Shown here piece by piece: positions 18,699-38,532 of a stretch of DNA of 59,593 nt. Both the position numbers and the translations under genes were made by a program. The notes under the pieces are model-generated. The model saw only the letters and a program-made list of their open reading frames with translations. It made no database searches and was not told where the DNA came from. Position 1 is the stretch's first letter, and each line of letters begins with the position of its first letter. Location of the stretch: the NCBI GenBank assembly GCA_013152585.1, contig JAADGC010000132.1, forward strand, positions 1-59,593. Reading direction: 5' to 3'. The DNA is from Chloroflexota bacterium (GTDB lineage: Bacteria; Chloroflexota; Anaerolineae; J102).

Positions 18699-20106
18699 CG
18701 AAATCAAGGTTGAAACGCGGTATCGTCGAATTGTCTCGGATATCCCACACCCTGACTCTCGGACAGTCATTGATGAACTGAGCCGGCTGGAACCGCGCTC
18801 GATGACTGGTATTTCGCCGGTCGTCTGGAACAGAGCAGAGGGGTTCCAGGTTTGGGACGGGCATGGCAATCGATGGCTTGATTTTACTTCAGCGATTGTG
18901 CTGGCCAACGTTGGCCACGCCAATCCCAAGATTAGCCAGGCCATTCGCGAACAGCTTGACCATTATCTATTCCACAGTTACTGCAATCCAACCGAGATCC
19001 GGCTGAGAGCTGTCAAGGCAATGAGAGAGATTCTGCCGCCTTATCTTGATAAAGTCTTCTTGTTAAGTACCGGATCGGAGGCCGTTGAAGCAGCTCTCAA
19101 GCTCACTCGTATGTATGGGCAAACAATCGCGTCCGGAAAAATTCACATCCTCTCCTACTACAATTCCTTCCACGGCCGGACGCTGGGGGCTCAGATGGCT
19201 GGAGGCTTTCTGGATCAGCAGGAGTGGATGGGCCAAAAGCCAGGTGGCTTCCATCATATTCCATTTCCAGAATGTGCACGCTGTCCTTGGGGCCGGCAAA
19301 AGTATGAAAATTGTGGAGTAGAATGCCTGGAACGATCGCTGGAACAACTCCGCGAACAGGATGTCCCGGACGATCTTTTTGCTGGCGTTATCACGGAGAC
19401 GTTTCAGGGACCAACCGTTGCCTTTATGCCCTTGGACTATGTACAGGCACTGCGTGAGTGGGCGGACAAGCACAAGACGTTACTTATCTTCGATGAGATA
19501 CAGGCAGCTTTTGGTCGGACAGCTAAATGGTTTGGGTTTGAGCATTATGGGGTCGAAGCTGATCTAATCTGTCTGGGCAAGGGTATGACTGCATCTTTGC
19601 CTATGTCTGCTGTGGCCGGGCGAGCTGCGATCCTCGATTTGCCTGATCCTGGTGAGATGAGCAGCACCCACACAGGAAATCCGTTGTGTTGTGCTGCAAC
19701 GATAGCCAATATCAACACCATTCGAGAAGAGGGGCTGATGGCGAACGCGGTTGCACTTGATCCTGTGATGCGAAAATCATTGGAGCATCTCTGCGAGAGT
19801 TTCCCGGGCTATGTCGGGGCCATCAACGGAAAAGGCCTCATCTGGGGTGTGTATCTGTTGAACCCGGCCACGGGGCAACCGAATTTGAGTCTAGCCAAGC
19901 GTGTCATCACGCGCTGCATAGAGCTTGGTCTCTTGATGCTGCCGACCGGAGGGCGCGGAACGTTGAAAATTGCGCCGCCCCTCTGCATCACAGAGGAAGC
20001 GCTTCTGGAGGGGGTTAGGGTGATCGAACAAGCTCTGGCCGAGTGTGTCGGGGGGAACTGGAATTCAGCCAGCACCCACGGGACAGGAATGGTGGAAAGC
20101 CTATGA
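18691..20106 (+). CDS. Class III (omega-type) PLP aminotransferase
   Basis: STGSEAVEAALKL, LIFDEIQAAFGRT, PLP-lysine context CLGKGMTAS. GGAGGG RBS. Confidence 0.9.
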   Translation: MRNEIKVETRYRRIVSDIPHPDSRTVIDELSRLEPRSMTGISPVVWNRAEGFQVWDGHGNRWLDFTSAIVLANVGHANPKISQAIREQLDHYLFHSYCNPTEIRLRAVKAMREILPPYLDKVFLLSTGSEAVEAALKLTRMYGQTIASGKIHILSYYNSFHGRTLGAQMAGGFLDQQEWMGQKPGGFHHIPFPECARCPWGRQKYENCGVECLERSLEQLREQDVPDDLFAGVITETFQGPTVAFMPLDYVQALREWADKHKTLLIFDEIQAAFGRTAKWFGFEHYGVEADLICLGKGMTASLPMSAVAGRAAILDLPDPGEMSSTHTGNPLCCAATIANINTIREEGLMANAVALDPVMRKSLEHLCESFPGYVGAINGKGLIWGVYLLNPATGQPNLSLAKRVITRCIELGLLMLPTGGRGTLKIAPPLCITEEALLEGVRVIEQALAECVGGNWNSASTHGTGMVESL

Positions 20107-21302
20107 AGACAAGTATGACTTCGCGAGAACGGCTTCTGGCTACCTGCGCCCATGAGCCCACCGACCATGTGCCGCTGCACCTGGATGTTCACCCTCTCTA
20201 TTATCAGTACGACCCACAAGCGACTACCTGGGAGGACCAATTTGAACGCACCGACGCTCTGCTGGCGCTCGGCGTTGATGCGATGATCGAGCTATGGTTG
20301 CCCGACCCGGCATTTCATCCCGATGTTAAGGTACGTAGCTGGCGCCAAGAGAGGAACGGCACGGTGCTGCTGGGCAAAGAATATGAAACACCGGCTGGCT
20401 CACTGCGACAGCTAATCAAGGAAACCCCCGGCCTATACCAATGGAACAAAATCAACGGCAAAACCCGCGGGCGACTGACCGACAACTTGATAGACGGGAT
20501 TGGTTTGCTGGAGGACGTGAACCCTTCACGAAGCGTTGAGTTTCTGATTAAGGGACCCGAAGATTTAGCGAAAATGCGCTATCTCTTCCAGCCTACGTCC
20601 GGTGACCAACTGGCTGAGTGGCGCACAGACGCCTTCTACGCCAAGAAAGAAGCTCAGAAACGTCAAGTGGCCTTTATCGCCCGCCGTACTTATTGTGGGT
20701 CGGCTATGGTGTGGCTCACAGATGCCATCGAGACCATGCTCTCTTATGAAGTGGACCCTGAGTACGTGGGCGAGTTCCTACAGATTATCCACGAATGGCA
20801 GTTGGCGACGTTGGAGATGGTCCTCGACATCGGCGACATCGACATAGTGACCCGTTTTGGCTACTACGACATCCCTGACTTCTGGAGTCGCAAATATTTT
20901 GATTACTATTTGCGGCCCAGGATGGACGAAGAGGCGGATATGGTCCATCAGGCGGGGACATTGCTCAGGCAGCAGCAAAGCAAAGGGCTAACTCAGTTAG
21001 TCGATATCTACAAAAAAATGAAGGTTGACATCTTGTGTGACATTGACCCGGTGCAGGGCCAGGAAGATATGGCCTTGTTGAAGAGGGAATTGGGGGCGAC
21101 CAAGACACTTATGGGCGGAATTAATGGTGATTTGTTCCTGGCAAACGCTTCTCCTGCAGAAATTGACCGAACTGTACAGGACACACTTCGACTGATGGCT
21201 GCGGGCGGCGGATTCATTATGCACATTATCCCCGGCATTTACTCTGGTGTACCCTGGGCTAATGTCCTGAGTTTGGTGGAAGCCTGGAGGAAGTATGCAT
21301 AA
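20103..21302 (+). CDS. URO-D (uroporphyrinogen decarboxylase/MtaA) family protein, paralogue 1
   Basis: ATGA overlap with the aminotransferase stop. N-terminus MTSRERLLATCAHEPTDHVPLHLD resembles the other paralogues. The HxCG position reads QQQSKG, so no His/Cys. Confidence 0.7.
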   Translation: MKTSMTSRERLLATCAHEPTDHVPLHLDVHPLYYQYDPQATTWEDQFERTDALLALGVDAMIELWLPDPAFHPDVKVRSWRQERNGTVLLGKEYETPAGSLRQLIKETPGLYQWNKINGKTRGRLTDNLIDGIGLLEDVNPSRSVEFLIKGPEDLAKMRYLFQPTSGDQLAEWRTDAFYAKKEAQKRQVAFIARRTYCGSAMVWLTDAIETMLSYEVDPEYVGEFLQIIHEWQLATLEMVLDIGDIDIVTRFGYYDIPDFWSRKYFDYYLRPRMDEEADMVHQAGTLLRQQQSKGLTQLVDIYKKMKVDILCDIDPVQGQEDMALLKRELGATKTLMGGINGDLFLANASPAEIDRTVQDTLRLMAAGGGFIMHIIPGIYSGVPWANVLSLVEAWRKYA

Positions 21303-21331
21303 CGTTAACATTAGCGATTTGGAGGTAAAAC

Positions 21332-22093
21332 ATGAAAATTCTTACTGCTAAGACGGCGATGGTAACCGGTGGGGCCACCGGCATTGGGGCGGCGACCGTT
21401 GAGCGCCTGGCCATGTTAGGAGCCGATGTCGCCTGTTGCTACAACACCAGCCGGGTGGCTGCCGAATCCCTGGCCCAGAAGATGCAGGAACATGGCCATG
21501 ACATTTTCACGGTAAAAGTGGACGTATCCAACGGCCAGGAAATAAAAGCCGGGGTGGAAGCGATTGCGGCTCATTTCGGACGCTCCATCAGCATCCTGGT
21601 CAACAATGCGGGTGATGTTTTTGCCGCATCACCTTTAGACAGAATGGAAGAGGAACTTTGGGACAAGGTGATGGGCGTCAATCTGCGGGGCGCGTTTCTC
21701 TGCGCCAAATATTGTATCCCTGGCATGAAGACAGCGAAGGCAGGGCGGATTATCAACGTCACCTCAATTTCTGCGCGTACCGGCGGCGGACCTGGCGCCG
21801 CCCACTACGCGGCGAGCAAAGGCGGTCTCGAAGCTTTGACGCGGGCGATGGCCCTGGAATTGGCCCCCTTTCACATCACGGTAAACGCCGTCTCGCCCGG
21901 CGTCATAGATACCCCCATCCATCAGCGCACCAACACACCCGAAACCCTTGAGAAACTGCGCCAAGTGATTCCCCTGGCCAGGCTAGGCCGGCCCGAGGAG
22001 GTGGCAAGAGTTATCTCCTTTCTAGCCTCAGAGGACGCCTCCTATATCACGGGTGACATTATCGCCGTCAACGGCGGCAAGCGGATGGATTGA
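21332..22093 (+). CDS. SDR-family oxidoreductase (FabG-like)
   Basis: TGGATGIGAATV, NNAG, YAASKGG, GDIIAVNGG. GGAGG RBS. Confidence 0.9.
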   Translation: MKILTAKTAMVTGGATGIGAATVERLAMLGADVACCYNTSRVAAESLAQKMQEHGHDIFTVKVDVSNGQEIKAGVEAIAAHFGRSISILVNNAGDVFAASPLDRMEEELWDKVMGVNLRGAFLCAKYCIPGMKTAKAGRIINVTSISARTGGGPGAAHYAASKGGLEALTRAMALELAPFHITVNAVSPGVIDTPIHQRTNTPETLEKLRQVIPLARLGRPEEVARVISFLASEDASYITGDIIAVNGGKRMD

Positions 22094-22122
22094 GTCATCA
22101 TGTTCTACGGAGTGCATCTCAC

Positions 22123-22899
22123 ATGAAGCTTGTGAACAAGGTTGCTGTGGTAACGGGTGGTGGTAGCGGCATCGGCGCTGAAATTTGCCGCGCCTTTGCC
22201 AGAGAAGGAGCTTTGGTAGCTGTCACCGATATGCGCCGGGAAGCGGCAGAGCAGATCGCGGCAGAAATTCGAGACGCCCAGGGCCAAGCATTCTCCTGGG
22301 GTTTTGATGTTTCCGATCATGCGACAGTGGAAGACGCTGTCTGCAAGATCGAAAAGCAATTGGGACCACTGGACATCTGGGTGAACAACGCCGGTATTTC
22401 TCGGGTTGTCCCTTTTCTTGATTGCAGCGATGATCTGTGGGATCTGATATTAAACGTCAATCTGAAGGGTACCTTCATCGGCTGTCAGGTGGCTGTTCGC
22501 CGTATGCTGCCCCGGAGACGCGGCGTGATTCTGAATATGTCATCTCAATCTGGTAAGGTTGGCAACAGTCACTATGCCGCCTATTGCGCCAGCAAGTTCG
22601 GAGTCATTGGTTTAACCCAGTCACTGGCCCAGGAGTTTGCCGGGGACGGAATTCGGGTCAACGCCCTGTGTCCTGGGGTGGTCTTTACACCGCTCTGGGA
22701 TGAGCAGACAAAAGACTATGCGCGCAAGCGGAACATCAGGCCGGAAGATGTCCGGTCCTATCTGGAAGAAAAGATCCCCTGTGGTAGGTTAGGCACCCCC
22801 GAGGATGTTGCCCGTACTGCCGTCTTTCTGGCCGGCGATGACGCCGCATACATCACTGGACAGGCCATCAACATCACTGGCGGCGCGGTTATGCACTAA
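22123..22899 (+). CDS. SDR-family oxidoreductase
   Basis: MKLVNKVAVVTGGGSGIGAEI start at ATG 22123. NNAG, YCASKFG, INITGG. Confidence 0.9.
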   Translation: MKLVNKVAVVTGGGSGIGAEICRAFAREGALVAVTDMRREAAEQIAAEIRDAQGQAFSWGFDVSDHATVEDAVCKIEKQLGPLDIWVNNAGISRVVPFLDCSDDLWDLILNVNLKGTFIGCQVAVRRMLPRRRGVILNMSSQSGKVGNSHYAAYCASKFGVIGLTQSLAQEFAGDGIRVNALCPGVVFTPLWDEQTKDYARKRNIRPEDVRSYLEEKIPCGRLGTPEDVARTAVFLAGDDAAYITGQAINITGGAVMH

Positions 22900-22915
22900 G
22901 GCGGGATGTAAACTC

Positions 22916-23953
22916 ATGCCAATCATTACGGATTATCAGGAAGTGAAAGATGTCTACCAGGAAGCGGCTGAATTGGGGGCTGCACTTCCTGTGTTTTGTA
23001 TGGAGGACAGAGAGACGCTAGAAGCGGTGCTGGCGTCGGTGTTGGAGTATGGTCAGGAGATCGGGGTAGAGAATTTGCCTATTGTCCCCTCCTGGACGGT
23101 GCGGTATCCGCCGCGGGGCCAGATGACGTTGATCACCGCCTGTGGCAACCCAGTGCTGGGTACGCAACTGATGTTTTCGGACTTGCAGGTGTTTATGGGA
23201 GAGAACAGTCCCTATCGGAAACTGCGGGTATTGCCGCATCTTGATCATGGCTTTCCCTGGTTGGATAGTGATATTCTTGATCACTTTGTCGATCAGTTTG
23301 CCTCGGTGATGCATGACGCCAGCGAGAAACCTTTTGAGGAGAACATACGGCTGACGGCAGAATACGTGGAGAAGATGCGGGGCCGGGTTGTGGTGGAAGG
23401 CGCGGTGGATGAAATCTTTGAATCCGGCGGTAGTGGATCAAAAAACGAACCGACAACGGTTGCACAGGCACGCAGGTTTTTGAGTGAGACAGGGGTGGAT
23501 ATTATCGTGCCAAATGTAGGCACCGAACACCGGGCCACGGCCGACCAGGTCCGGTATCGGTCTGACCGGGCGCGGGAAATTAGTGCGGCGGTGGGCAAAA
23601 TACTGTGCCTGCACGGCACTTCCTCGGTCAAACCCGAAGATCTCCCCAAACTGCCTGAGGACGGCTTTTTGAAAATCAACATTTACACCACGCTGGCAGT
23701 ACATGGTGGGCAGGCAGTGGCGCGTGAGGTTCTCTCAAGTCTGCACGACATCTTTGACGAGGAACAACTGCGACAGCTCATAGCGGACGGGATATTGTCA
23801 GAGTCGGTCCTTTCTACGGGCGACCCCACACCCATAAAACCAAAATTGGCCTCTGTGGCGAACCCACCCCGCCGTGATGCCTGGTTCCAGGCGGTCAGGG
23901 GCAGATGCAAGGATTTCCTGGTGGTATTCAACTACAGGAAATATGCACGATGA
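22916..23953 (+). CDS. Class II (metal-dependent) ketose-bisphosphate aldolase family protein
   Basis: ATG 22916 (MPIITDYQEVKDVY...). The three His ligand contexts of the FBA_II fold are present: PHLDHG, NVGTEH, LCLHGTSS. Confidence 0.75.
   Translation: MPIITDYQEVKDVYQEAAELGAALPVFCMEDRETLEAVLASVLEYGQEIGVENLPIVPSWTVRYPPRGQMTLITACGNPVLGTQLMFSDLQVFMGENSPYRKLRVLPHLDHGFPWLDSDILDHFVDQFASVMHDASEKPFEENIRLTAEYVEKMRGRVVVEGAVDEIFESGGSGSKNEPTTVAQARRFLSETGVDIIVPNVGTEHRATADQVRYRSDRAREISAAVGKILCLHGTSSVKPEDLPKLPEDGFLKINIYTTLAVHGGQAVAREVLSSLHDIFDEEQLRQLIADGILSESVLSTGDPTPIKPKLASVANPPRRDAWFQAVRGRCKDFLVVFNYRKYAR
23918..23952 (+). repeat. Gene-junction repeat, copy A (partner at 28994-29025)
   Basis: CTGGTGGTATTCAACTACAGGAAATATGCACGATG. 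It encodes the aldolase C-terminus (LVVFNYRKYAR) and supplies the ATG of the next gene. Confidence 0.7.
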
Positions 23954-25125
23954 GAGATGCTACAAGGTCAAAACGGCATGACCAAAAGGGGGCGAATAAC
24001 TTGAGTTTTGACCATTTACATAAGCCTGATCATTGCGCCGAGGTGGCTCGCCTGCACCAGAACGCGTTTGCCTGGAAGCCACAAGGCCGGATACCTTTAG
24101 GAATCCACGTGGTCAACCCGAGGCACACAGATGGAATTGATTACTCCCAGTGGCTCAATCCTGAGCCATTCCTGGAATTTCAAAGGAAAACACTGGCCGA
24201 TACCCTGGCTGTTGGTTCAGACCTAATGCCTGCTGTTGCCATCAACCACCTGGGTGATGCCGTCCTGACCAGCATGTTTGGAGCCGAACTGTTGATGCCA
24301 GAGAGCAGCTCCACAACCTTACAGGAGGTCGGACCAACCCCGGTACCGGTCTTTTCCAGCATCCAGGAAGCAGCCGAGTGGGGAGTGCCCGGCCTGGATG
24401 CCGGCATTATGCCCGAAGTCGAGAGAATGGCGCGCTTCTATCGGGGAAACCTTCCGCCATGGGTCCACGTCGTGGCCCCTATGCCGGCAGGGCCATTCTC
24501 TACTGCTATGGAACTGCGTGGTTCGGACATTCTGGTCGATCTGATAGATCATCCCGATCTTTGCCACCGTTTTATCTGCAACTGTACACAACTGCTGATT
24601 GAAGTTGAAAAAAAAGTGCGTATGCTGGTGGCGGCGCCATTACGTGATGAACACATCTCAAATTTTTGTATCATGGGCGCCGGCCTGAGGCTGGGGGAAG
24701 ATTCGATGGTGAATCTATCGCCGGCGATGATCCGTGAGTTCTGTGTTCCGGCTTTCGCCCAGGTCAACCAATATTTTGGTGGCAGGGGCCACATTCATTT
24801 CTGTTCGCTCCCCCATTCTCGCTTTGAACATATCTACTCGGCATTGCTCCCGGCCTCGGAGGTGGCGGTCGTCAGTTCTCAATTTGGCTTCGAGTACTAC
24901 GAGCAGCATCTCGATGAATTGCGTGGTCGTCTGGCTATAGAGGCTTTTTACGGTGAAGATGCCATGCAGTATGTTTGCCGGAAATACGGCTCATTCCGTG
25001 ACTGGGCAAACTACTTCGTGCCGCGTTTCAAGAACGAGTCAGGACTTGTACTCTACTTTCAGGCTGGCTCCCTCGAAGAGGGCCGTGAGATATGGACCGT
25101 CTGGCAGGAAGCGCACCAAAGGTGA
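23950..25125 (+). CDS. Divergent URO-D-like TIM-barrel protein, paralogue 2
   Basis: ATGA overlap. PAGPFSTAMELRGSDILVDLIDHPD resembles the GPFT...L..D.P segment of the URO-D/MtaA family. HIHFCSLPH sits at the HxC position. The N-terminal extension is about 35 aa. Confidence 0.5.
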   Translation: MRDATRSKRHDQKGANNLSFDHLHKPDHCAEVARLHQNAFAWKPQGRIPLGIHVVNPRHTDGIDYSQWLNPEPFLEFQRKTLADTLAVGSDLMPAVAINHLGDAVLTSMFGAELLMPESSSTTLQEVGPTPVPVFSSIQEAAEWGVPGLDAGIMPEVERMARFYRGNLPPWVHVVAPMPAGPFSTAMELRGSDILVDLIDHPDLCHRFICNCTQLLIEVEKKVRMLVAAPLRDEHISNFCIMGAGLRLGEDSMVNLSPAMIREFCVPAFAQVNQYFGGRGHIHFCSLPHSRFEHIYSALLPASEVAVVSSQFGFEYYEQHLDELRGRLAIEAFYGEDAMQYVCRKYGSFRDWANYFVPRFKNESGLVLYFQAGSLEEGREIWTVWQEAHQR

Positions 25126-25127
25126 CA

Positions 25128-26699
25128 ATGATGAATAAAGGGGCTTCAACAAGCAAAATGCTGAAATTTTCGGGCATCGTTAGACATCTTGGCGAATCTG
25201 CCAGTCTGGTTGCCGGTCTGGAAGCGCACGATTTCAGAGCAGCTAACACTTTTATGAAAGCGATGTACCCCGATGATGGCAGCTTGGTTCGACGGATACG
25301 GTTTATGGCCTGGGCCATACACCAAGTGTTTCGTATCATCCCCGACGCCTTGTCCACCGTGAGTTTTGCAAGGTGCGTTTCCAAGGTGCCGGTATGGCTG
25401 GCAGAGGGCAATCCTTTTGCTAACTATCCCTGGTCTACCCAGCCTGATGCGCAGCTCCCCGATGAGGTCGAAGTCGCAGTGATTGGCGCCGGTTTCACTG
25501 GCGCTGGTTGTGCTTACCATTGGGCAAAACAAGGGGCAGGTGACATGGTGGTTCTCGAAATGAATGATCCTGCCTCAGGCGCCAGCGGCAGCAACGAAGG
25601 TGTGGTAGTCATGGGTCGCTATTTTGCAATGGTGAGGGGGACCGTTCGTAAACATCTTGAATCTGCCCGGCCCGACTTAACCCCGATGCAGCGCCACAAG
25701 CTCGCCTCACAATTTGCGACGGCCTATGCCAAGAGTGCCTATAAAAATGCCTGCCTCATCGAAGAAACCATCGCCAAGGAGCAATACGACTGTGACTATG
25801 TGCGAAATGGTTGGATTCAGGCAGTGGATGTGGAGGATCAAGCGCTGCTGGAAGAATCGCTGCATCTTGATTGGGCAGCCGGATTCAATGACCGCAGCAG
25901 AATACAGCCTGATGAAGCCCTAAGTTTGGGAGGAATACAACTGGATTGTGCGGCCAGCTTCTCAAAGGGCGCAGCCCACTTCCACCCTGCCAAGTGGGTC
26001 TGGTGCTTGCTTAATACTGCACTCGAACAACCTTCTGTGAGTCTCTTTACGCGTACCAAAGTTCTGCAGGTAGAGGACGCTGGAGAGCACTACCTGGTGC
26101 ATACGACGCGCGGCGCCATAAAGGCTCGCTTCGTCATCAATGCGACCGAGTCGTTCACGGGCCTCTTGCACGCACAGTATAGAGACCTGATTGAACCCGT
26201 TCAGACCCAAGCTGCTTTCGCGGAAGGCGGGCCATCAGACATGAAGCCGGATATCGGTTACAGTTGTAAGCGCGGTTTCTTTGGCCGCTTTGGCCACCCA
26301 CAAGGGGTGTTGTTTGGCTCTGATGAAACCCATCTCTCTTACCGAGAGGCCGGGAGTAATCACCCTTCGCGCTTTATCACCAAATTTCTGGTTGGCGAGA
26401 TACAAAAATATTTTGGGCGTAGCTCACTTCATGTGACACGCGAGTGGAGTTCTACCGCCGGCTTCACTCCAGACGAATTCCCGGTTGTCGGTCTGCTGGA
26501 CGGCAAACGCCAGTACATCATCGGGGGAATGTGCGGATCGGGCACAGCCGTGTCTTTCAATGGCGCCCGTCATGTGGTTCAGCAAATCTTGGGCTTGGAT
26601 GGGCCGGATGATTATCCGACTCAGTACTTTGCTCCAACCCGTCTGCTCGCTCCTGAGCTGCATCCCTGGCCAGAGATCGTGGAGGAGAACATAAGATGA
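25128..26699 (+). CDS. FAD-dependent oxidoreductase (DAO/amine-oxidase type)
   Basis: Dinucleotide fold VAVIGAGFTGAGCAYHWAKQG...VVLE only about 120 aa into the protein; C-terminal GGMCGSGTAVS. Confidence 0.8.
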   Translation: MMNKGASTSKMLKFSGIVRHLGESASLVAGLEAHDFRAANTFMKAMYPDDGSLVRRIRFMAWAIHQVFRIIPDALSTVSFARCVSKVPVWLAEGNPFANYPWSTQPDAQLPDEVEVAVIGAGFTGAGCAYHWAKQGAGDMVVLEMNDPASGASGSNEGVVVMGRYFAMVRGTVRKHLESARPDLTPMQRHKLASQFATAYAKSAYKNACLIEETIAKEQYDCDYVRNGWIQAVDVEDQALLEESLHLDWAAGFNDRSRIQPDEALSLGGIQLDCAASFSKGAAHFHPAKWVWCLLNTALEQPSVSLFTRTKVLQVEDAGEHYLVHTTRGAIKARFVINATESFTGLLHAQYRDLIEPVQTQAAFAEGGPSDMKPDIGYSCKRGFFGRFGHPQGVLFGSDETHLSYREAGSNHPSRFITKFLVGEIQKYFGRSSLHVTREWSSTAGFTPDEFPVVGLLDGKRQYIIGGMCGSGTAVSFNGARHVVQQILGLDGPDDYPTQYFAPTRLLAPELHPWPEIVEENIR

Positions 26700-27856
26700 A
26701 TGGGAAGCAACGCATCCTCGCCACACTGGCTGGAGAAAAACCGGATCGCGTGCCCTTTGTGCCCAACATATGGCAATGGTTCTATGTGAATCAATACAAC
26801 GACACGCTGCCCGATGTCATTAGCGACGCTCAAAGCCCCGTTGAGGTGCTCAGGGGCATGGGTGCAGACATCTTTTCCAAGTTTGATGGAGAAATTGCTA
26901 AGTCAGTCTGCCGCGCCTGTCAGTACACCATTGAATTTGAGGGCGCATTTCGTGACAGCAAGACGCCAAATGCGGATTTTGCCAGTTTCGAGGGCGGGCC
27001 GATTCGGAAAGAGAGAATCGGGACCCCGTATGGCCCGCTGACTCACACCTGGGAATATCGAGAGGATGCCGGAGCGCCGTTTGAATCGGAACATTGGTGG
27101 AAAGATTTCGACTCCGAATACGCGGCCATTCGCTATTGGCTGGAGGACACCGAGACGCAGTGTGACTCTGAGGCACTCCAGGCAGGTCTATCCAATGTGG
27201 GTGAAGATGGGACCATTTTGCTCCAACTCCTGCCAACACCCCTCAAGAAATTCCACTGGCTGGCCGGTCAGGAGCAGGCCACTTTTTTCATCATGGACCA
27301 CCCGGAGAAAATGCGTGAGCTGGCCTCTATCCACGAGCGACAGTCGCTTGAGTGGCTGGAAGAAGTGGTAGACCTGGATGAAGTTTGGGTCTTTGAAGTG
27401 CCGGATAATGTAGACTCTATGTTCTATCCGCCCTACTGGTACGAAGAGTTCTGCCTGCCGATCCTGAAAAAAGAGGCGGAGATGGTCCGTGCCCGAGGTA
27501 AATACCTGTTTCTACATGCCTGTGGTCACCTGAAAGCGCTGGGGCCACTGTTCCTGGAAACGGGCGTGGCATGCGTAGAAGGTCAAGCGCCGCCCCCTTT
27601 GGGTGACTGGCATCTCCACGAGGCGCGGGCGCTCAGCGATCGGTTGATTGTGTGTGGTGGTATGGCAGCTCCCGAGCAGGAGTTGACAGGTGCAGATGCC
27701 ACGGAGCGAATCGATGCTTACGTGCGTGATCTTTTCGCTTCGATGGGCGACAAACGTCGTTTTCTGTTTGGTTCCAGTTGCAATACCTCACCGCTGACAC
27801 CGTATGAGAACCTTTTAGCCTTCCGGGATGCCGCCTGGAGGTATGGCAGACTATGA
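26696..27856 (+). CDS. URO-D/MtaA-like methyltransferase-family protein, paralogue 3
   Basis: MNGKQRILATLAGEKPDRVPFVP. HACG plus a distal GSSCNTSPLTPYEN, which gives a complete His-x-Cys...Cys pattern. ATGA overlap upstream. Confidence 0.75.
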   Translation: MNGKQRILATLAGEKPDRVPFVPNIWQWFYVNQYNDTLPDVISDAQSPVEVLRGMGADIFSKFDGEIAKSVCRACQYTIEFEGAFRDSKTPNADFASFEGGPIRKERIGTPYGPLTHTWEYREDAGAPFESEHWWKDFDSEYAAIRYWLEDTETQCDSEALQAGLSNVGEDGTILLQLLPTPLKKFHWLAGQEQATFFIMDHPEKMRELASIHERQSLEWLEEVVDLDEVWVFEVPDNVDSMFYPPYWYEEFCLPILKKEAEMVRARGKYLFLHACGHLKALGPLFLETGVACVEGQAPPPLGDWHLHEARALSDRLIVCGGMAAPEQELTGADATERIDAYVRDLFASMGDKRRFLFGSSCNTSPLTPYENLLAFRDAAWRYGRL

Positions 27857-28989
27857 ACGCTCGCGAACGGGTACTAGCGGCAATCAATCATGAGGAGCCA
27901 GACCGTGTACCGATTGATCTTGGCAGTGTTGGCCCGACGGGCATTCACGTCCTGGCCTACGAACGTCTACTCAAGGTGCTCGGAATTGAAGAGGAGATCG
28001 AAATATGGGACGTAGTTGGGCAATTGGCAAAACCATCGGAGACGGTTCTGGAGTTAGTGGGCGCCGACGTACGTGGTATTCGAGTGGGGGGCAGCGCCTA
28101 CAAGCCTGTTCTCTTATCGGCCACAGAACTCGTCGACCATTGGGGGACAGTCTGGCGGCGACCCGAGGGAGGACTCTGCTTCCACCTTGCCGAGTACCCT
28201 TTGAGAAACGCTACCCAACGCGACCTGGAAAGCTACCCATGGCCTGACGGCAAGAACCCTGATTTGGTAACCGGTCTGGCAGAAAGGGCCAGGTATCTGC
28301 GGGAAAATACACCGTACGCCGTTCTCGGCGAATTTGCGGGCCATTTTTTCGAGCGGGCGCAGATGGTGCGTGGCTTCGACACGTTTCTCCTGGACCTGGC
28401 GGCTGATCGCGATTTCGCTGAGGAATTGATGGACCGTATTCTTGCCGTTGAGATCGATATCGTTTCCGCCTTTTTGGATGCGGTCAACCCCTATATTGAC
28501 ATCATCGCTTTCAAAGATGACATCGCGATGCAGAGTGGCCCGGTGATTTCCCCCCAAATGTTCCGTGAGATGATCAAGCCTCGCATGAAAAAACTGATTG
28601 AGGCTATTCGCCGCAAAACACAGGCCAAGCTGTGGTTTCATAGCTGCGGCTCAGTCTACTACGCCATCCCGGACCTGATTGAGTTGGGGGTCGAGATTCT
28701 GAACCCCGTTCAGGTTCGGGCTGCGGGCATGGACACCGCCCGCCTCAAACGCAGTTTTGGGAAGAACCTGGCGTTTTGGGGTGGGATTGATACACAGCAC
28801 GTATTGCCTTTTGGCACCCCGGAGGACGTCAAAGCCGAAGTACGGCAGCGTATCTCCGATCTGGCCCCGGGTGGGGGTTACATCCTGGCCAGTGTACATA
28901 ATATCGAAGCAGATGTGTCCGGTGAAAATGTCTGGGCAATGTATCAAGCAGCCCATCACTACGGCCGCTATCCGCTACGCCAGTCATAA
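27853..28989 (+). CDS. URO-D/MtaA-like protein, paralogue 4
   Basis: MNARERVLAAINHEEPDRVPIDLG. FHSCG. The distal position reads ASVHNIE. ATGA overlap upstream. Confidence 0.8.
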   Translation: MNARERVLAAINHEEPDRVPIDLGSVGPTGIHVLAYERLLKVLGIEEEIEIWDVVGQLAKPSETVLELVGADVRGIRVGGSAYKPVLLSATELVDHWGTVWRRPEGGLCFHLAEYPLRNATQRDLESYPWPDGKNPDLVTGLAERARYLRENTPYAVLGEFAGHFFERAQMVRGFDTFLLDLAADRDFAEELMDRILAVEIDIVSAFLDAVNPYIDIIAFKDDIAMQSGPVISPQMFREMIKPRMKKLIEAIRRKTQAKLWFHSCGSVYYAIPDLIELGVEILNPVQVRAAGMDTARLKRSFGKNLAFWGGIDTQHVLPFGTPEDVKAEVRQRISDLAPGGGYILASVHNIEADVSGENVWAMYQAAHHYGRYPLRQS

Positions 28990-29064: not shown

Positions 29065-29700
29065 ATGAGTCTTGAAACTATCTACGATGCAGTACTGAGA
29101 GGTGATGCAAACGTCGCCGAATCCGAGGTGAAGGCCGCAATAGATAATGGTACCGCAGCCGAAGAGATTTTGCACCAGGCTTGCATTCCGGCGATGACCG
29201 AAGTGGGCCGGCAGTTCGAAATCGGCGAAAAATTTGTCCCCGAGATGTTAATTGCTGCCCGGGCAATGCAGGTGGCGGTCAATATCCTCAAACCGCTGCT
29301 GGTAGAAGCGGATATCAAGGCATTGGGGAAAGTGGTGATCGGCACTGTAGCCGGTGATCTGCACGACATCGGCAAGAATCTGGTTGGTATGATGCTGGAA
29401 GGGGCCGGATTTGAGATCATCGACCTGGGTACCAACGTGGCCCCTGAAAAGTTTGTGGCCGCGGTTCAGGAAAACGAAATTGATATGGTGGGAATGTCGG
29501 CCCTGTTGACCACTACGATGCCCTCCATCACCGCCACCATCGAAGCGCTGACCGAAGCCGGGGTACGGAATCAGGTCAAGGTTATCATTGGCGGTGCGCC
29601 CATTACTCAGGATTTTGCCGACAAAATTGGCGCCGATGGCTTTGCCGCTGATGCCGGTAGCGCTCCCCGTGTGGCTAAGGCACTGCTGGGGGTCGAGTAA
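29065..29700 (+). CDS. Corrinoid (cobalamin-binding) methyl-carrier protein, MtaC/MtbC/MttC-like
   Basis: Helical cap domain followed by a B12-binding Rossmann domain with the full signature D-x-H-x-x-G (GDLHDIGKN) ... S-x-L (MSALLTTTM) ... G-G (VIIGGAP). AAGGGAGG RBS. Confidence 0.9.
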   Translation: MSLETIYDAVLRGDANVAESEVKAAIDNGTAAEEILHQACIPAMTEVGRQFEIGEKFVPEMLIAARAMQVAVNILKPLLVEADIKALGKVVIGTVAGDLHDIGKNLVGMMLEGAGFEIIDLGTNVAPEKFVAAVQENEIDMVGMSALLTTTMPSITATIEALTEAGVRNQVKVIIGGAPITQDFADKIGADGFAADAGSAPRVAKALLGVE

Positions 29701-30738: not shown

Positions 30739-30813
30739 GTGGCCCTATGCCGCCCTACGGGCGTCAGAATCAAGCAACCGACAGTACAGCTCTACCAGGA
30801 GGCACTGAAAATA

Positions 30814-34273: not shown

Positions 34274-35044
34274 ATGTATCTGAAGGAACGTTTGGCGGCC
34301 GGGCATTGCCAGATCGGGGCAGGCATATACTCCAACTCACCTGACTTGGTTGAGCTTGTAGCGAGGGACATGGATTGGATATGGTGGGAAGCCCAGCACT
34401 CGCACGCAGATTGGCAGACTATCGTTCACGGGGTGCGCACCGCGTATGGGATGCGGATACCGGTGCTGGTCAGAACCTGGACTCATAACGGCGATACGAT
34501 CGAAAGGCTACTCGACACCGGCGCAGAGGGGATCATTGTACCAATGGTCAATACACCCGAGCAGGCTGAAGAGATTGTCTCCCGCTGTTACTATCCGCCG
34601 CTTGGCAATCGTTCGTGTGGTTCAGTTCGGATGGAGAGTATCGAGATGGACCTGAACGAGTGGAACAAGCGCATTATCACCGTTATGATGATTGAAACGC
34701 CTGAGGCTGTAAAGAACGCCGAGTCCATTGCCGGCGTCCCGGGCGTGGATGGTCTGTTAATCGGCGCCCGGGACCTGGCAATACGGATTCTTGGCAAGAG
34801 CGTGGATAATGACGCTGCATTCCCCCATGTTAAGCGCGAAATGGATCATGTCGTCAGGGTTTGTCAGCAGACCGGCAAGGCTGCCGGGATAATTGCCTTA
34901 ACACCGGATGCATTGGCGGCGCGTATCCAGGAGGGGTACCGCTTGATCTGTGCTGGTATGGATGTGGACCATCTTCGGGCTACCTACCGTCGAATGAGAG
35001 AGACCGCCCAGGAAGCCATAGATATGGAGGTGACATCATTATAA
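34274..35044 (+). CDS. HpcH/HpaI-family 2-keto-3-deoxy-acid aldolase
   Basis: 256 aa. DWIWWEAQH, VLVRT, IIVPMVNTPEQAEEIV, MMIETPEAV and GVDGLLIGARDL match the HpcH/HpaI (class II pyruvate aldolase) pattern. AGGAGG RBS. Confidence 0.85.
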   Translation: MYLKERLAAGHCQIGAGIYSNSPDLVELVARDMDWIWWEAQHSHADWQTIVHGVRTAYGMRIPVLVRTWTHNGDTIERLLDTGAEGIIVPMVNTPEQAEEIVSRCYYPPLGNRSCGSVRMESIEMDLNEWNKRIITVMMIETPEAVKNAESIAGVPGVDGLLIGARDLAIRILGKSVDNDAAFPHVKREMDHVVRVCQQTGKAAGIIALTPDALAARIQEGYRLICAGMDVDHLRATYRRMRETAQEAIDMEVTSL

Positions 35045-36204
35045 AAAGCCGACAGATACCCAAGTTTGACTACAGTACGCCCTCTACAGCTTTGACGCAG
35101 CTCCTGGAGTGGATCGAAGAGCGCATAGACCTGGATCATGTCGCTGCTGTGGAAGAGCGACACATCAAGGCTCTACAGTGGGAGCCAGTGGATCGGCCGC
35201 CGGTAACCTTCTCTGCGCCAGTATCCGAGCCCTTCGTCGTGTATCCATACGCCCAGGCATTTCACGATTCGGCCAAGATGATGGTGAACGAATTGATAGG
35301 GCCTTATGCCGCGATGGGTCCATCCCCAAGCATTGTCAACAGCGTGCTCATCAAGGATGATTATCCTTTGCAGATACGGGCCTTTTACGGTGTGGGACTC
35401 TTCGTTTCGTTTTTTGGCGCCAAAAGCGAGATAATCGGGGATAACTTCCCCTGGACACAGCCGATTGGCCTTGAGACGTTGAAGCGACATGTCGCACGCG
35501 GTGTACCAGAACTAAAAAGCGAACTCTCCCAACGCGCTCTGGACACGATGGCCTATTATAAGGAGGTTCTGGCACCCTATCCGAAATGCCGACAGGCCAT
35601 CCACATCACTCAGCCTGATCTGCAAGGACCTTTTGAAAATGCCGTTCATTTGTGGGGGAGTGACATCTTTACCGCGTTTTACGATTGTCCTGATTTCCTG
35701 AGAGAATTACTCGACCTGTTGGCCGAGACGTGGGTGCTCGCCTGTCGCAAGTTCGCTGCTGAATCTACCGAGACTGCCCGAGAAGATTTCATTTATCTAC
35801 ACTTCACTATTGTAAAGGGAAAGGGCCTACTTAAAGATGACTCGACCGTCATGCTTTCTCCCCAAATCTACTCCGAATTCATCCGGCCCTTGAATGAGAA
35901 GGTGTTTCACGCTCTGGGAACTGGCGGCATCCATTGGTGTGGAAATGGTGACCAGTGGCGATCTAAGCTTATGGATACCAAAGGTCTGGCGTGCATTGAT
36001 TGGGGGAATCCTGACATGATCGACCTGCCTGCCTGGGCCACAATTCTCAGAGAACGCCGCCTGCCCGTTGCCAGAATGGAATGGAAGTCAAATGTTTTTT
36101 CCGAAATTGTCCCCGCACAACTATTCCCGACTGGGGCCTCCTTTGTCGTTATGGTAGACGATTTTGAACAAGCAAGGGCAATGGTCCAAAATGGAACAGT
36201 ATAA
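35038..36204 (+). CDS. Divergent URO-D-like protein, paralogue 5 (start uncertain; ATT 35038 or TTG 35092)
   Basis: EERHIKALQWEPVDRPPV aligns with the RERVLAAINHEEPDRVPI motif of the paralogues. GGIHWCG sits at the HxCG position. No ATG/GTG/TTG is in frame between 34930 and 35091; ATT 35038 lies 7 nt after GGAGG. Confidence 0.55.
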   Translation: MIKSRQIPKFDYSTPSTALTQLLEWIEERIDLDHVAAVEERHIKALQWEPVDRPPVTFSAPVSEPFVVYPYAQAFHDSAKMMVNELIGPYAAMGPSPSIVNSVLIKDDYPLQIRAFYGVGLFVSFFGAKSEIIGDNFPWTQPIGLETLKRHVARGVPELKSELSQRALDTMAYYKEVLAPYPKCRQAIHITQPDLQGPFENAVHLWGSDIFTAFYDCPDFLRELLDLLAETWVLACRKFAAESTETAREDFIYLHFTIVKGKGLLKDDSTVMLSPQIYSEFIRPLNEKVFHALGTGGIHWCGNGDQWRSKLMDTKGLACIDWGNPDMIDLPAWATILRERRLPVARMEWKSNVFSEIVPAQLFPTGASFVVMVDDFEQARAMVQNGTV

Positions 36205-36375
36205 CTGGCATCTTGGAGACGACAAGATGAAGTCTTTCGACAACAGTATCAGGTTTTCCGAAGAAACGATTCTTTCAGTAAACGCGTAGGTTGACGCGCT
36301 GCAAGCTACAATCATGTATTACCCGTGAAACCCACGGAGTTCGATATCCTCATCATGGAGAGACAAGTGAAAGAT

Positions 36376-37287
36376 ATGAGCATCGTAGTTCCCATTGTGA
36401 CACCCTGTACACCTTCGGGAGAGTTGGATTTGGATGGCTTAAAGGCTGTCTGTAAGGACGTGATAGGCGCTGGCTGCAGCAGCATCTTTGCCGTAGGCAG
36501 TACGGGGCGCGGGCCTTGGTTCAGTCGCGACGACCGCGCCAGAATCTGCCACACAGTCGCCGATCAAGCCGACTGCAACGTTCCGGTCCTGGCTGGATGC
36601 ATGGCATCAGGGCTCCCACAAATGCTGGAGAACGTTTACGCTATGGCTGATGCAGGTGCCCAAATGGCGGTCGTCACGGCTCCTGGATATTTTCGCTACA
36701 ACCAGAAAGAGATCGAGACTGTTTTCCTCAAGTTTGCAGACGCTAGTCCCCTGCCAGTGTTAATCTACGATATTCCAGATCTGGTCGGGATAAAACTGGA
36801 TGTGGAAATGATCATTCGGTTGGCTCGTCACGGAAATATTGTTGGAATTAAAGATTCGACGGCGGATTTCGTCCGTTTCAAAAAGCTGCTCACCGGCTTA
36901 GGTGACTTGTCTGATTTTTACGTATTTCAAGGCAAGGAGAGGTTTTTGGCTGACTCCCTGCTTGCGGGCGCTTCGGGTTTTGTGGTGAGCCTGGTTCAAA
37001 TTGATCCTCGCCCGTTCGTTGCACTCCATCGAGCAGTTCGTTCAGGGAAAATAGAAGTGGCACGGCGTATTCAGGCCGAAATCAGCAAGGTCACGGGTCT
37101 GATCGAGGAGAGCTTTAAACAGCGGCCAGAGACTTCAACTCTTTTCCATTTTCTGAACTGGTCTTTGCGGCATCGCCGTATCTGCGACAATATTCTTCTC
37201 GATCACGAGCAGGATTGCCCTCCGTGGTTGGCCGACACTGCAAGGAAAGTTTTCGAAATCTGCAAGGCTGCGAGTTTGATCGAGTGA
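36376..37287 (+). CDS. DapA/N-acetylneuraminate-lyase family (class I Schiff-base) lyase
   Basis: MSIVVPIVTPCTPSGELDLDGL start. GSTGRG, VLIYDIP, Schiff-base lysine context NIVGIKDST. Upstream in-frame starts at 36325/36355 are also possible. Confidence 0.8.
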   Translation: MSIVVPIVTPCTPSGELDLDGLKAVCKDVIGAGCSSIFAVGSTGRGPWFSRDDRARICHTVADQADCNVPVLAGCMASGLPQMLENVYAMADAGAQMAVVTAPGYFRYNQKEIETVFLKFADASPLPVLIYDIPDLVGIKLDVEMIIRLARHGNIVGIKDSTADFVRFKKLLTGLGDLSDFYVFQGKERFLADSLLAGASGFVVSLVQIDPRPFVALHRAVRSGKIEVARRIQAEISKVTGLIEESFKQRPETSTLFHFLNWSLRHRRICDNILLDHEQDCPPWLADTARKVFEICKAASLIE

Positions 37288-37320
37288 AAATCTGCGAATC
37301 ATTGAAGAGGTAATGAAATA

Positions 37321-38532
37321 ATGAGTATGTCATCGCGAGAGAGGGTACTGGCGGCCATAAACCACCAGGAGCCGGATCGGGTTCCCATCGATTTGGGGGG
37401 CGAGTCTAATACCGGCATCGCTGCGGGTACCTATACCCGCTTGCGGGAGCGATTGGGGATCGAAGGGGAGCCCGTGAAAGTCTTTGACGTGGAGCAAATG
37501 CTGGCCTGGGTTGAGCAGCCGGTGGTGGGAGCATTGGGGGTCGATGTTCTACCCATCCGCAGGCTGACACAAGCCTACGGTATGCGCCTTGACAATTGGC
37601 GTCCCTGGCGCTTAGACGATGGCACCCCCGTTCAGATGCCAGCCCGTTTCGACCCGGTGACCGAGGAGGATGGCAGCCTGGGTTTATATCTAAATGGTGA
37701 ACTGGTAGCTAAGAAGGTCTCGATGAGTCCCTACTTTGACCCCATGATCGAATTCAAGTTTTATAACCCGCTGCCGCCGGTCGAGACGTTCGACATGTGG
37801 GCCTTCACCGACGAGGAGTTAGGGTGGGCACGGCGCTGGGCCGAAAGGCTGCGTGCCGAAACGGACAAAGCCTTGCTCGGTGACCCCGGGGTTGTTCTAA
37901 CCCGTTGGAGCAGCTACCAGGAATGGCTGTACACCCTTGCCGCTGATCCTGATTATGTCCTCGCCTTCTACGACCGTAAGGTCGAGAACATGCTCACGAA
38001 TCTAGAACTGTATGCTCAAGCCGTGGGTAATAATATCGACATATTCCGGACGGGCGAGGACTATGGCACGCAGAAGGGGATGATGATCTCGCCTAAGATG
38101 TTCAACGAGATGATCGCGCCGTACTACAAGCGCGTGTTTGATTGGATTCACCAGAATACGTCGTGGAAGATATTCTTTCACTGTTGCGGCGCTATCTACC
38201 CGATCATCGGAACGTTGATTGAGTGCGGTATTGACATTCTTAACCCCGTCCAGACCACAGCGGTGGGTATGGACCCCGCCAAGCTCAAAGCGGAATTCGG
38301 TGAGGCGATTACCTTCTGGGGGGGAGGTATCGACACTCAGTCCGTGTTGCCCTTCGGCTCCCCGGAGGAGGTACGGGCACAGGTGCGGGAGCGCATCCAG
38401 ATCTTTGGTCTCGGCGGCGGCTTCGTCTTCACCCCTGTCCACAACATCCAGGAAAAGATTCCAGTTGACAACTTGCTGGCGATGTACGAAGCTGTGCATG
38501 AGTATGGGCAGTACCCGATTCGCAAGGCTTGA
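37321..38532 (+). CDS. URO-D/MtaA-like protein, paralogue 6
   Basis: MSMSSRERVLAAINHQEPDRVPIDLG. FHCCG. The distal position reads TPVHNIQ. Closest in sequence to paralogue 4. Confidence 0.8.
   Translation: MSMSSRERVLAAINHQEPDRVPIDLGGESNTGIAAGTYTRLRERLGIEGEPVKVFDVEQMLAWVEQPVVGALGVDVLPIRRLTQAYGMRLDNWRPWRLDDGTPVQMPARFDPVTEEDGSLGLYLNGELVAKKVSMSPYFDPMIEFKFYNPLPPVETFDMWAFTDEELGWARRWAERLRAETDKALLGDPGVVLTRWSSYQEWLYTLAADPDYVLAFYDRKVENMLTNLELYAQAVGNNIDIFRTGEDYGTQKGMMISPKMFNEMIAPYYKRVFDWIHQNTSWKIFFHCCGAIYPIIGTLIECGIDILNPVQTTAVGMDPAKLKAEFGEAITFWGGGIDTQSVLPFGSPEEVRAQVRERIQIFGLGGGFVFTPVHNIQEKIPVDNLLAMYEAVHEYGQYPIRKA

Follow-up and report, generated by a model that had tools for sequence, protein, structure and literature searches.

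Corrinoid-dependent methyl transfer by enzymes of the uroporphyrinogen decarboxylase (UroD) fold is the described chemistry closest to the locus reported here, a 20-gene operon in contig JAADGC010000132.1 of the metagenome-assembled genome of an uncultured Chloroflexi (Chloroflexota) bacterium (the whole contig of 59,593 nucleotides is called the window below). The operon encodes a 211-residue corrinoid protein, labelled CoP, and six UroD-like proteins, labelled U1 to U6 by the order of their genes along it (CoP and U4 are NOZ50038.1 and NOZ50037.1, locus tag GXP37_08340). In the O-demethylases (Odm, Vdm and Mtv) of acetogens and Desulfitobacterium and in the chloromethane system CdmBCA of Acetobacterium dehalogenans, the methyltransferase acting on the substrate (MT-I) is also a UroD-fold TIM barrel, known both with zinc and without it, the second methyltransferase (MT-II) can be MtaA-like, and the activase is often encoded at another locus without co-regulation (PMC13222342). 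Methanogens use MtaA, MtbA or MtsA with the corrinoid proteins MtaC or MtbC. MtaA-like genes of the UroD superfamily also accompany corrinoid proteins outside methanogens, in the type 1 mlp clusters described in a preprint by Kountz and Balskus; their products share more than 25% identity with characterised coenzyme M methyltransferases, their physiological substrate is unknown, and methyl-sulfur or methyl-selenide compounds have been proposed (PMC10418091). For carbohydrates, a cytochrome P450 oxidatively demethylates 6-O-methyl-D-galactose in marine bacteria (PMC6292453, PMC10033563), and no other demethylation was found in the searched literature, which also held no description of corrinoid-dependent carbohydrate demethylation or of these Chloroflexi loci.

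We propose, with middling confidence, that U3, U4 and CoP form a corrinoid demethylase module that serves a conserved, unmapped sugar or amino-sugar pathway ending in pyruvate and acetyl-CoA. The operon runs from 17149 to 38532 (about 21 kb) on one strand, with 12 overlapping junctions, one abutting junction and six gaps of 29-240 bp, in agreement with the original prediction of a co-directional operon with mostly overlapping genes. The genes at the centre of the proposal are as follows.

20103..21302, + strand: U1; URO-D 35.6 bits; metal-ligand pattern missing; 66-83% identity in orthologous operons.
23950..25125, + strand: U2; unannotated family of 176 clusters; MtaA/UroD fold; invariant H283-x-C285.
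26696..27856, + strand: U3; URO-D 54.2 bits; full MtaA-type H-x-C...C; second candidate methyltransferase of U3-U4-CoP.
27853..28989, + strand: U4; URO-D 94.6 bits; putative triad H263-x-C265...H349; candidate methyltransferase partner of CoP.
29065..29700, + strand: CoP; stand-alone corrinoid (cobalamin) methyl carrier of 211 residues, with a cap domain and a Rossmann B12-binding domain.
35038..36204 (start uncertain), + strand: U5; distant relative of U2; invariant H-x-C-G-N-G.
37321..38532, + strand: U6; URO-D 79.7 bits; paralogue of U4; H-x-C...H; last gene of the operon.

Both domains of CoP were recognised by Pfam (B12-binding_2, PF02607, 72.6 bits; B12-binding, PF02310, 100.9 bits), and its translation carries the three His-on motifs GDLHDIGKN (DxHxxG), MSALL (SxL) and IIGGAP (GG), so the complete cobalamin signature originally read at 29065-29700 is indeed there. 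In NCBIfam it scored 211 bits with MtgC_2 (cut-off 370), 182 with MtbC (350) and 180 with TIGR02370 (215), compared with 41 for CarH (cut-off 400) and at most 47 for mutase subunits. Its nearest solved structures are 1y80 from Moorella (E 3.5e-57), MttC 7xcn and 4jgi, the last being the cobalamin-binding protein of a putative Desulfitobacterium O-demethylase (PMC3727330). No DNA-binding domain was found in CoP. Because of the model scores and the solved relatives, we place CoP with the methyl carriers, in no named substrate class; it is neither a sensor nor a mutase subunit. The gene has its own Shine-Dalgarno sequence, GGGAGG, and its GC content, overall and at third codon positions, equals that of the neighbouring genes, so composition gives no sign that CoP was acquired recently.

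The UroD-like proteins are far more divergent. With a Pfam gathering score of 23.9 bits for URO-D (PF01208), U5 is marginal at 24.9 bits, no single stretch being significant alone, and U2 had no match in Pfam, NCBIfam or a sequence search of the PDB. A local hidden Markov model built from U1, U3, U4, U6 and open reading frames (ORFs) neighbouring CoP homologues, with U2 and U5 excluded, found U5 at E 7e-26 and U2 at E 2e-20; U2 and U5 share 24% identity (blastp E 2e-14). Sequence searches of the PDB with U1, U2 and U3 returned noise only, so profiles and predicted folds were needed. The AlphaFold2 model of U2, made from a 32-sequence alignment (predicted local distance difference test, pLDDT, 91.9), matched Methanosarcina mazei MtaA best in Foldseek (E 1e-9, TM score 0.65/0.73), followed by 21 UroD chains at E < 2e-7. 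For the U4 model (pLDDT 94.6) the order was MtaA 4ay7 (E 1.6e-16), UroD and MetE. Since Pfam, the local model and the predicted fold of U2 agree, U1 to U6 are all assigned to the UroD/MtaA fold superfamily. The six URO-D-family genes claimed for the operon are thus confirmed, U2 through the local model and its fold and U5 through the marginal Pfam match and the local model. The term paralogues holds at the superfamily level; closer kinship does not, with pairwise identities of 20-25% except between U4 and U6 (40%).

Within the superfamily the U proteins lean toward MtaA. The NCBIfam model TIGR01463 (MtaA/CmuA, cut-off 235 bits) gave 66 bits with U4, 53 with U6, 32 with U3 and 19 with U5; equivalog cut-offs for MtaA and MtbA are 400-600 bits. 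At E <= 0.01, U1 and U2 had no NCBIfam match, U3 to U6 matched MtaA/CmuA-type families alone, and HemE families were absent from the matches of all six. The sequence of U6 found weak matches to UroD, MtaA and CdmB in the PDB. A profile of the U4/U6 family (31 sequences) detected MtaA 4ay7 at E 1.3e-10 and the chloromethane MT-I CdmB (9rui) at E 8e-5 (C-terminal 76 residues) and matched no UroD chain at E <= 0.001. Asked whether all six are true HemE, or CoP a B12-sensing regulator, these searches answered no in both cases.

In a profile alignment, the H-x-C of MtaA is matched by H263 and C265 of U4, and the Cys in its segment APGCG by H349; in M. mazei MtaA these H-x-C...C residues are the three zinc ligands. 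H263, C265 and H349 are invariant in the U4 family, where the His-Cys-His pattern is kept in all 31 members. According to hmmalign and MAFFT, U3 has the complete H-x-C...C triad, and in U4 and U6 a His replaces the third Cys. U2 and U5 have an invariant H-x-C, with no ligand identified at the third position. At the triad positions U1 and its orthologues in three relatives (L090, L099 and L100) read Q-x-Q...P, with no ligands. At the MtaA zinc positions U1 to U6 thus fall into four classes, and the His and Cys residues that U2 to U6 have there are called putative metal ligands here.

Compared with the O-demethylases and CdmBCA, the window shares a stand-alone corrinoid protein of about 210 residues with cap and Rossmann domains (4jgi being a strong match to CoP), and the U4-family profile detects CdmB. 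The sequence kinship to CdmB is, however, very remote, and the window has no pterin-binding MT-II. Its six divergent UroD-fold genes per corrinoid protein lie, in Chloroflexi, among genes for sugar enzymes, aminotransferases and aldolases and not, as in Firmicutes, among Wood-Ljungdahl C1 (one-carbon) genes, and CoP is missing from the orthologous operons. The methanogen systems resemble the window in that M. mazei MtaA 4ay7 is the best match of U4 and U2, H-x-C is kept in U2 to U6 with the third Cys in U3, and CoP scores 182 bits on MtbC; they differ in that U1 to U6 reach at most 66 of 235 bits, U4 and U6 have His for the third Cys, U1 has no ligands, and there is no MtaB/MttB partner in the window. 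Chloroflexi are, to our knowledge, not known to make coenzyme M, so the methyl acceptor must differ from it. The type 1 mlp clusters, which we compared by description only, share the combination of MtaA-like genes and corrinoid proteins, but neither Chloroflexi nor carbohydrate loci are mentioned in the preprint (PMC10418091). The P450 system is likewise embedded in sugar-utilisation loci; it depends on oxygen, releases formaldehyde and belongs to an unrelated protein family, whereas the module in the window would transfer methyl groups without oxygen.

The original prediction called this kit an orphan, and odd, because MtaB/MttB/MtgB, a RamA-type activase and a pterin-binding module were not seen in the window. 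We scanned about 50 predicted genes over the 59.6 kb, a few shorter ORFs being left out, and found no MttB (PF06253, MTTB), MtaB (PF12176) or pterin-binding gene among them, and likewise no RACo/RamA and no gene for cobalamin synthesis or uptake. No cobalamin riboswitch and no tRNA were found in the window. The absences were thus correctly noted, but the conclusion drawn from them does not stand: because MT-I can be UroD-fold, MT-II can be MtaA-like and the activase can be encoded elsewhere, the orphan argument is weak (PMC13222342). RACo-type genes were also rare beside CoP homologues in other genomes (about 10 of 238 first and second neighbours), so an adjacent activase is the exception. The window holds a corrinoid protein contiguous with two methyltransferase-like genes: U3 and U4 overlap by 4 nt, and 75 nt separate U4 from CoP.

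A search with CoP of one genome per GTDB species gave at least 591 relatives, and we examined the loci of the best 80 together with three further ones. CoP homologues in these 83 loci are 51-80% identical to CoP. When all ORFs near them were scanned, a UroD-like gene lay within 5 kb in 47 of the loci and within 1.5 kb in 39. URO-D was the top Pfam family around CoP, with 23 matches among the 125 first neighbours and 15 among the 113 second neighbours; the others included MTTB (5 + 5), RACo (5 + 5), MetH-type pieces, DUF1638, MtaB (3) and CobW (3). The UroD-like ORFs near CoP homologues were mostly nearest to U4 or U6 (69 of 87), and the triad positions read H-x-(C/D)...(H/C/D) in the majority. 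In L002, L015 and L025, distant U2- and U5-like genes adjoin CoPs too. The CobW-type GTPases may act as chaperones that bring metal to the His/Cys sites of the UroD-fold enzymes. As a separate observation, DUF1638 recurs near CoP, with 5, 3 and 6 matches in three partly overlapping neighbour censuses.

CoP homologues of 75-85% identity are abundant in Anaerolineae metagenomes and stand in varied carbohydrate contexts, for example:

L001 (10001-20636): two CoPs and four UroD-like genes within 10 kb, with rhamnosidase, RhaM and a CUT2 transporter.
L002 (8986-10636): CoP with galactokinase, CobW and a sugar transporter.
L003: CoP with GH36, GH4 and GalT.
L010: CoP with a CUT1 transporter and a lyxose isomerase (62% identical to that of the window).
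L097: CoP with CUT1 permeases.
L098: CoP with fucose isomerase, FGGY kinase and a Y1 transposase.

More distant homologues occur in Armatimonadota (including Fervidibacter sacchari), Verrucomicrobiota, Acidobacteriota, Planctomycetota and Bacillota. A further 134 ORFs from 38 UroD-positive loci were led by ABC_tran, BPD_transp_2, DUF1638, MDR alcohol dehydrogenases, DAO, BPD_transp_1, Peripla_BP_4 and LacI, and CoP/UroD modules were also found near CUT2 transporters and LacI or ROK regulators. The association of such modules with carbohydrate loci in glycan degraders is apparently broad and undescribed. The Y1 (IS200-type) transposase gene of L098 (1215-1637) lies directly downstream of a CoP orthologue (81%) and hints at a route by which CoP genes move among sugar loci.

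Orthologous operons were collected by anchoring on orthologues of U2 (176 clusters, all annotated as hypothetical) and U4; a metagenome scan with U2 gave 10 loci, mostly short. The gene contents of the relatives, with identities to the window, were as follows.

L099: GntR, alcohol dehydrogenase, VOC, class III aminotransferase (AT3), U1, two SDRs, U2, DAO, U4 and Ldh_2; 71-90%.
L100, strand 1: alcohol dehydrogenase, VOC, AT3, U1, two SDRs, aldolase, U2, DAO, U4, class IV aminotransferase (AT4), SDR, E1 alpha, E1 beta, lipoyl protein and PfkB; 62-81%.
L100, other strand: DapA, DegT, HpcH and GFO_IDH; the locus spans 21 kb and covers the whole core.
L085: DapA-family gene, U3, DAO, U4, AT4, E1 alpha, E1 beta, E2, an HpcH-like gene (25%) and U2; 63-86%.
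L101/L102: GntR, U4, family-5 binding protein, SDR, AT4, permeases, U5 (67%), DegT and DapA; 44-74%.
L087, L088, L090, L091 and L096: shuffled subsets of the operon; 58-82%.

The operon is thus kept, with its order shuffled, in at least five relatives, where U1, U2, U4, U5 and the catabolic genes are 58-90% identical. Because it is conserved across relatives, we consider the gene set a genuine functional unit. CoP is not part of that set. U4 directly precedes AT4 in the order U4-AT4-E1-E2 common to L085 and L100, and in the window a 756-bp segment carrying CoP lies between the two. U3 varies as well, standing before DAO in L085 and being absent from L099 and L100. CoP is therefore an accessory of the window's version of the operon. 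The claim of a single kit wired into a catabolic operon stands for the parts and the conserved operon, but not for CoP, which is missing from the orthologous operons; co-occurrence of corrinoid and UroD-like genes likewise holds at the family level (the 47 loci of 83 above) but not in the orthologous operons of L085, L099, L100, L101, L088 and L090. Because these operons keep the U genes without CoP, corrinoid dependence can only be inferred for most of U1 to U6. It is possible that the enzymes of CoP-less operons use a CoP encoded elsewhere, or that most of them need none. The former, with CoP supplied in trans, is plausible, since several CoPs exist within such genomes and the sequence of CoP stays unusually similar (75-85%) from one context to another. 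Apart from CoP, L100 (15770-21149) and L101 (18061-20292) carry, relative to the window, an extra PfkB kinase, a DegT/DnrJ/EryC1 sugar aminotransferase and a GFO_IDH_MocA oxidoreductase, and L101 has a family-5 (peptide/opine type) binding protein in place of CUT1. These extra genes suggest an aminated sugar or cyclitol as substrate.

The remaining genes of the operon and of the divergent unit beside it were identified by Pfam.

17149-18246, + strand: MDR zinc alcohol dehydrogenase; first gene of the operon.
18243-18698, + strand: small VOC/glyoxalase-fold protein (151 residues, single module).
18691-20106, + strand: AT3.
21332-22093 and 22090-22899, + strand: two SDR dehydrogenases.
~22805/22916-23953, + strand: class II aldolase (FBA/tagatose-bisphosphate type).
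25092..26699, + strand: DAO-family FAD oxidoreductase of 535 residues (DAO 146 bits; 125-residue N-terminal extension).
29746-30738, + strand: AT4.
30739-31857, + strand: pyruvate-dehydrogenase-like E1 alpha (355 bits against PDH_E1_alph_y, cut-off 394).
31857-32849, + strand: E1 beta.
32846-34033, + strand: E2.
34274..35044, + strand: HpcH/HpaI-family 2-keto-3-deoxy-acid aldolase.
36325..37287, + strand: DapA/DHDPS-family pyruvate-dependent aldolase/lyase (DHDPS 131 bits).
17064..17155, both strands: candidate divergent promoters, in the interval that separates the operon from the GntR gene.
16289-16999, - strand: GntR/FCD regulator, divergent from the operon.
14640-16049, - strand: CUT1 sugar-binding protein, whose nearest solved relatives bind sugars or oligosaccharides.
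13656-14630 and 12688-13677, - strand: two CUT1 permeases.
11904-12599, - strand: D-lyxose/mannose isomerase.

The interleaving of aminotransferases, DAO protein, aldolases, dehydrogenases, VOC protein and E1/E2 genes, with a divergent GntR/CUT1/isomerase unit, is thus borne out by Pfam. NCBIfam matches were generic and sub-cut-off for the alcohol dehydrogenase, VOC and AT3 genes, below cut-offs for the two SDRs, the class II aldolase and the DapA-family protein, and sub-cut-off for the HpcH/HpaI aldolase (HpaI, KDR aldolase and GarL); the DAO protein matched sarcosine and pipecolate oxidases weakly. E3 is not present with E1 and E2 in the operon. Because the accessory enzymes all stay below equivalog cut-offs, no described pathway is assignable, as had been suspected. 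Orthologues are found in the same order in L099 and L100 for the first three genes (71-87%), in L088 and L100 for the SDR/SDR/aldolase block, in L085, L099 and L100 for DAO (476-543 residues) and in L090, L100 and L101 for the DapA-family gene (58-67%). The GntR orthologue of L099 (87%) is also divergent from its operon, and lyxose isomerase homologues adjoin U1/U2 in L088 and CoP in L010. We considered an inositol/rhizopine-type route, for which an IolM-like alcohol dehydrogenase match (186 bits), the class II aldolase and the PfkB, GFO_IDH and DegT genes of L100 spoke, and dropped it because IolE, IolD and IolB-type genes were all absent. A methionine/methylthio route (AT4, E1/E2 and thiol-type metal sites) was kept as one candidate donor class only.

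Two promoter candidates, each identified by its consensus match alone, face outward from the divergent region. On the + strand, 17064-17092 reads TTGACA-17-TATAAT (12 of 12 sigma-70 consensus positions); on the - strand, 17155-17127 reads TTGACA-17-TAGAAT with an extended TG (11 of 12) and faces the GntR/FCD gene. Three gene starts need comment. The coordinate 35038 of U5 is an ATT, 4 nt downstream of the strong Shine-Dalgarno sequence GGAGGTGA. No canonical start lies near the stop of the preceding aldolase gene, and the first ATG, GTG or TTG is a TTG at 35092, which would remove residues kept in homologues; the ATT may be a non-canonical start codon. Homologues of U2 are about 12 residues shorter at the N-terminus, and its true start is probably about 12 codons downstream of 23950. 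The class II aldolase probably starts downstream of 22805, its L100 orthologue having 345 residues.

From the observed parts, folds, residue patterns, operon structure and neighbourhood statistics we infer the following scheme, in which each catalytic step, the roles of U3 and U4, the substrate and the acceptor are conditional. A sugar-like, probably amino- and methyl-decorated compound would enter through the divergent CUT1 transporter under GntR/FCD control. One UroD-fold enzyme would move a methyl group from the substrate to Co(I) CoP, and a second would pass it from methyl-Co(III) to tetrahydrofolate or a thiol. The clearest pair for these steps would be U3 and U4, which overlap, lie directly upstream of CoP and have His/Cys at the MtaA zinc-ligand positions; U1, U2, U5 and U6 might broaden the range of methyl groups removed through the same CoP, or carry out related non-corrinoid steps. 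The demethylated skeleton would be taken to pyruvate by the MDR and SDR dehydrogenases, the two aminotransferases, the DAO flavoprotein and the three aldolases (class II, HpcH and DapA type), and the pyruvate-dehydrogenase-like E1/E2 would convert pyruvate to acetyl-CoA. For re-activation of CoP, the cobamide supply and the C1 acceptor pathway, the module would depend on other loci of the genome. Candidate methyl donors are O-methyl sugars or cyclitols, methylated amino sugars, methylthio compounds and methoxylated aglycones. An aldehyde:ferredoxin oxidoreductase gene 5 kb upstream fits an anaerobe.

Several results weigh against a corrinoid demethylase module. With tblastn, no CoP was found in 17 orthologous loci of about 150 kb in total (including L085, L099, L100, L101/L102 and L088/L090). 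The closest CoP orthologues (81-84%) sit in unrelated sugar loci, and distant U2 relatives adjoin another UroD-like gene with no CoP within 10 kb. All of U1 to U6 fall under the curated MtaA/CmuA cut-off (best 66 against 235), CoP is below every curated cut-off of the named corrinoid subfamilies, and U1 lacks the metal pattern. No activase, C1-acceptor enzyme or cobamide gene was found among the scanned genes of the window, and NCBIfam gave no equivalog-level call for the accessory enzymes or the solute-binding protein. In a rival reading, U1, U2, U4, U5 and perhaps U6 would be corrinoid-independent enzymes of an amino-sugar or sugar-acid pathway, such as zinc-dependent alkyl or thiol transferases (as MetE and epoxyalkane:CoM transferase), decarboxylases or lyases, and CoP, perhaps with U3, would be a lineage-specific insertion that forms a small methyltransferase module of its own. 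Five independent versions of the operon keep U1/U2/U4/U5 with no CoP in view, the positions of CoP and U3 vary, the metal pattern is missing from U1, and on Planctomycetota-type and marine contigs members of the U2 family are accompanied by another UroD-like gene but by no CoP within 10 kb. The UroD superfamily includes corrinoid-independent zinc enzymes (PMC10418091), and MetE is among the Foldseek matches. However, the genes most often found directly beside CoP homologues in other loci encode U4/U6-type proteins, even distant U2- and U5-like genes stand beside CoPs (L002, L015 and L025), the CoP-less views are mostly short contigs, and a CoP in trans is plausible given the two CoPs within 10 kb in L001 and the conservation of the protein. 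We regard the corrinoid-independent explanation as a real possibility, though on the doubtful side.

A conventional aryl methyl-ether O-demethylase acting on methoxylated phenolics (lignin-derived or plant-glycoside aglycones), with the sugar enzymes serving the glycosyl part, seems unlikely to us. The nearest characterised systems with a UroD-fold MT-I and a corrinoid protein are indeed the aryl O-demethylases and Cdm, aromatic ring-cleavage pathways, too, employ aldolases of the HpcH/HpaI and DapA types and VOC proteins, and L001 pairs CoP/UroD genes with an alpha-L-rhamnosidase, a class that acts on flavonoid rhamnoglucosides, for example the methoxylated hesperidin. Yet the operon has no glycosidase and no ring-reducing or ring-cleaving enzyme, its VOC protein is a single module of 151 residues, and its context is one of aminotransferases, an amine-oxidase-type flavoprotein, sugar isomerases and aldolases. 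U1 to U6 are also remote from characterised MT-I enzymes, with CdmB alone detected (E 8e-5 over 76 residues). We give almost no credence to U1 to U6 as ordinary uroporphyrinogen decarboxylases, or to CoP as a B12-sensing regulator or mutase subunit, with no methyl transfer at all. The Pfam family name, the strong fold matches to UroD structures and the weak CarH and mutase matches of CoP would fit this, but it is contradicted by the absence of HemE from the NCBIfam matches at E <= 0.01 and by a U4 profile that matches MtaA and CdmB but no UroD at E <= 0.001. Six copies in a catabolic operon would make no sense for heme synthesis, and CoP has no DNA-binding domain and scores 181-211 bits with the MtgC/MtbC models against 41 for CarH and at most 47 for mutases. 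The corrinoid demethylase module of U3, U4 and CoP remains the reading we prefer.

Other features of the window lie outside the operon. A second catabolic operon upstream (2432-11592, + strand), preceded by a CUT2-type ABC transporter, encodes a creatinase-like M24 peptidase, two SDRs, DUF4432, another E1 alpha/E1 beta/E2 set (6494-9820) and a tungsten-type aldehyde:ferredoxin oxidoreductase (9817-11592, + strand). The oxidoreductase suggests an anaerobic lifestyle, and two E1/E2 sets without E3 within 35 kb are unusual. Downstream of 38532 follow a HisZ/HisS-like gene (38988-40286), an AAA_21/RloB pair and a histidine biosynthesis operon. The pair (40442-42354, + strand), in which an AAA_21 ATPase gene (433 residues) overlaps that of a RloB-like protein (204 residues), lies between the HisZ/HisS-like gene and the histidine operon and looks like a small defence or abortive-infection type module. 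The ORF at 42610-43440 has no Pfam match and stands upstream of hisD at the expected position of hisG; it overlaps long ORFs at 42417-43082 (+ strand) and 42393-43067 (- strand), and the gene call is tentative. At 55413-57878 (- strand), an 821-residue solute-binding protein with two SBP_bac_8/SBP_bac_1 stretches, apparently a tandem duplication, adjoins a permease with a TM_PBP2_N extension, a GH13 alpha-amylase-family gene and a LacI regulator.

Glycans of plants, algae and microbes commonly contain methylated sugars, which block normal sugar catabolism. A wider reading, which we offer as speculative and think rather improbable, is that the CoP/UroD modules represent a widespread, undescribed class of corrinoid-dependent UroD-fold enzymes that remove methyl groups from non-aromatic, carbohydrate-type substrates without oxygen, the present operon being a multi-methyltransferase version that feeds a new pathway to pyruvate and acetyl-CoA. 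Its users would be Anaerolineae, Armatimonadota including Fervidibacter, Verrucomicrobiota, Acidobacteriota and Planctomycetota; its substrates would be O-methyl sugars, methyl cyclitols, methylated amino sugars and methylthio sugars; and the H-x-C...H/C/D metal site would activate a poor leaving group. U2/U5 and U1 are in any case sizeable unannotated branches of the UroD superfamily within a conserved operon of an unmapped pathway. If sugar-type methyl groups are the substrates, the modules would account for the handling of methylated sugars by Anaerolineae and other abundant anaerobes that degrade glycans, would add a C1 (methyl) source and a demand for vitamin B12 to carbon cycling in sediments and digesters, and would bring unactivated alkyl methyl ethers or thioethers within reach of corrinoid methyltransferases.

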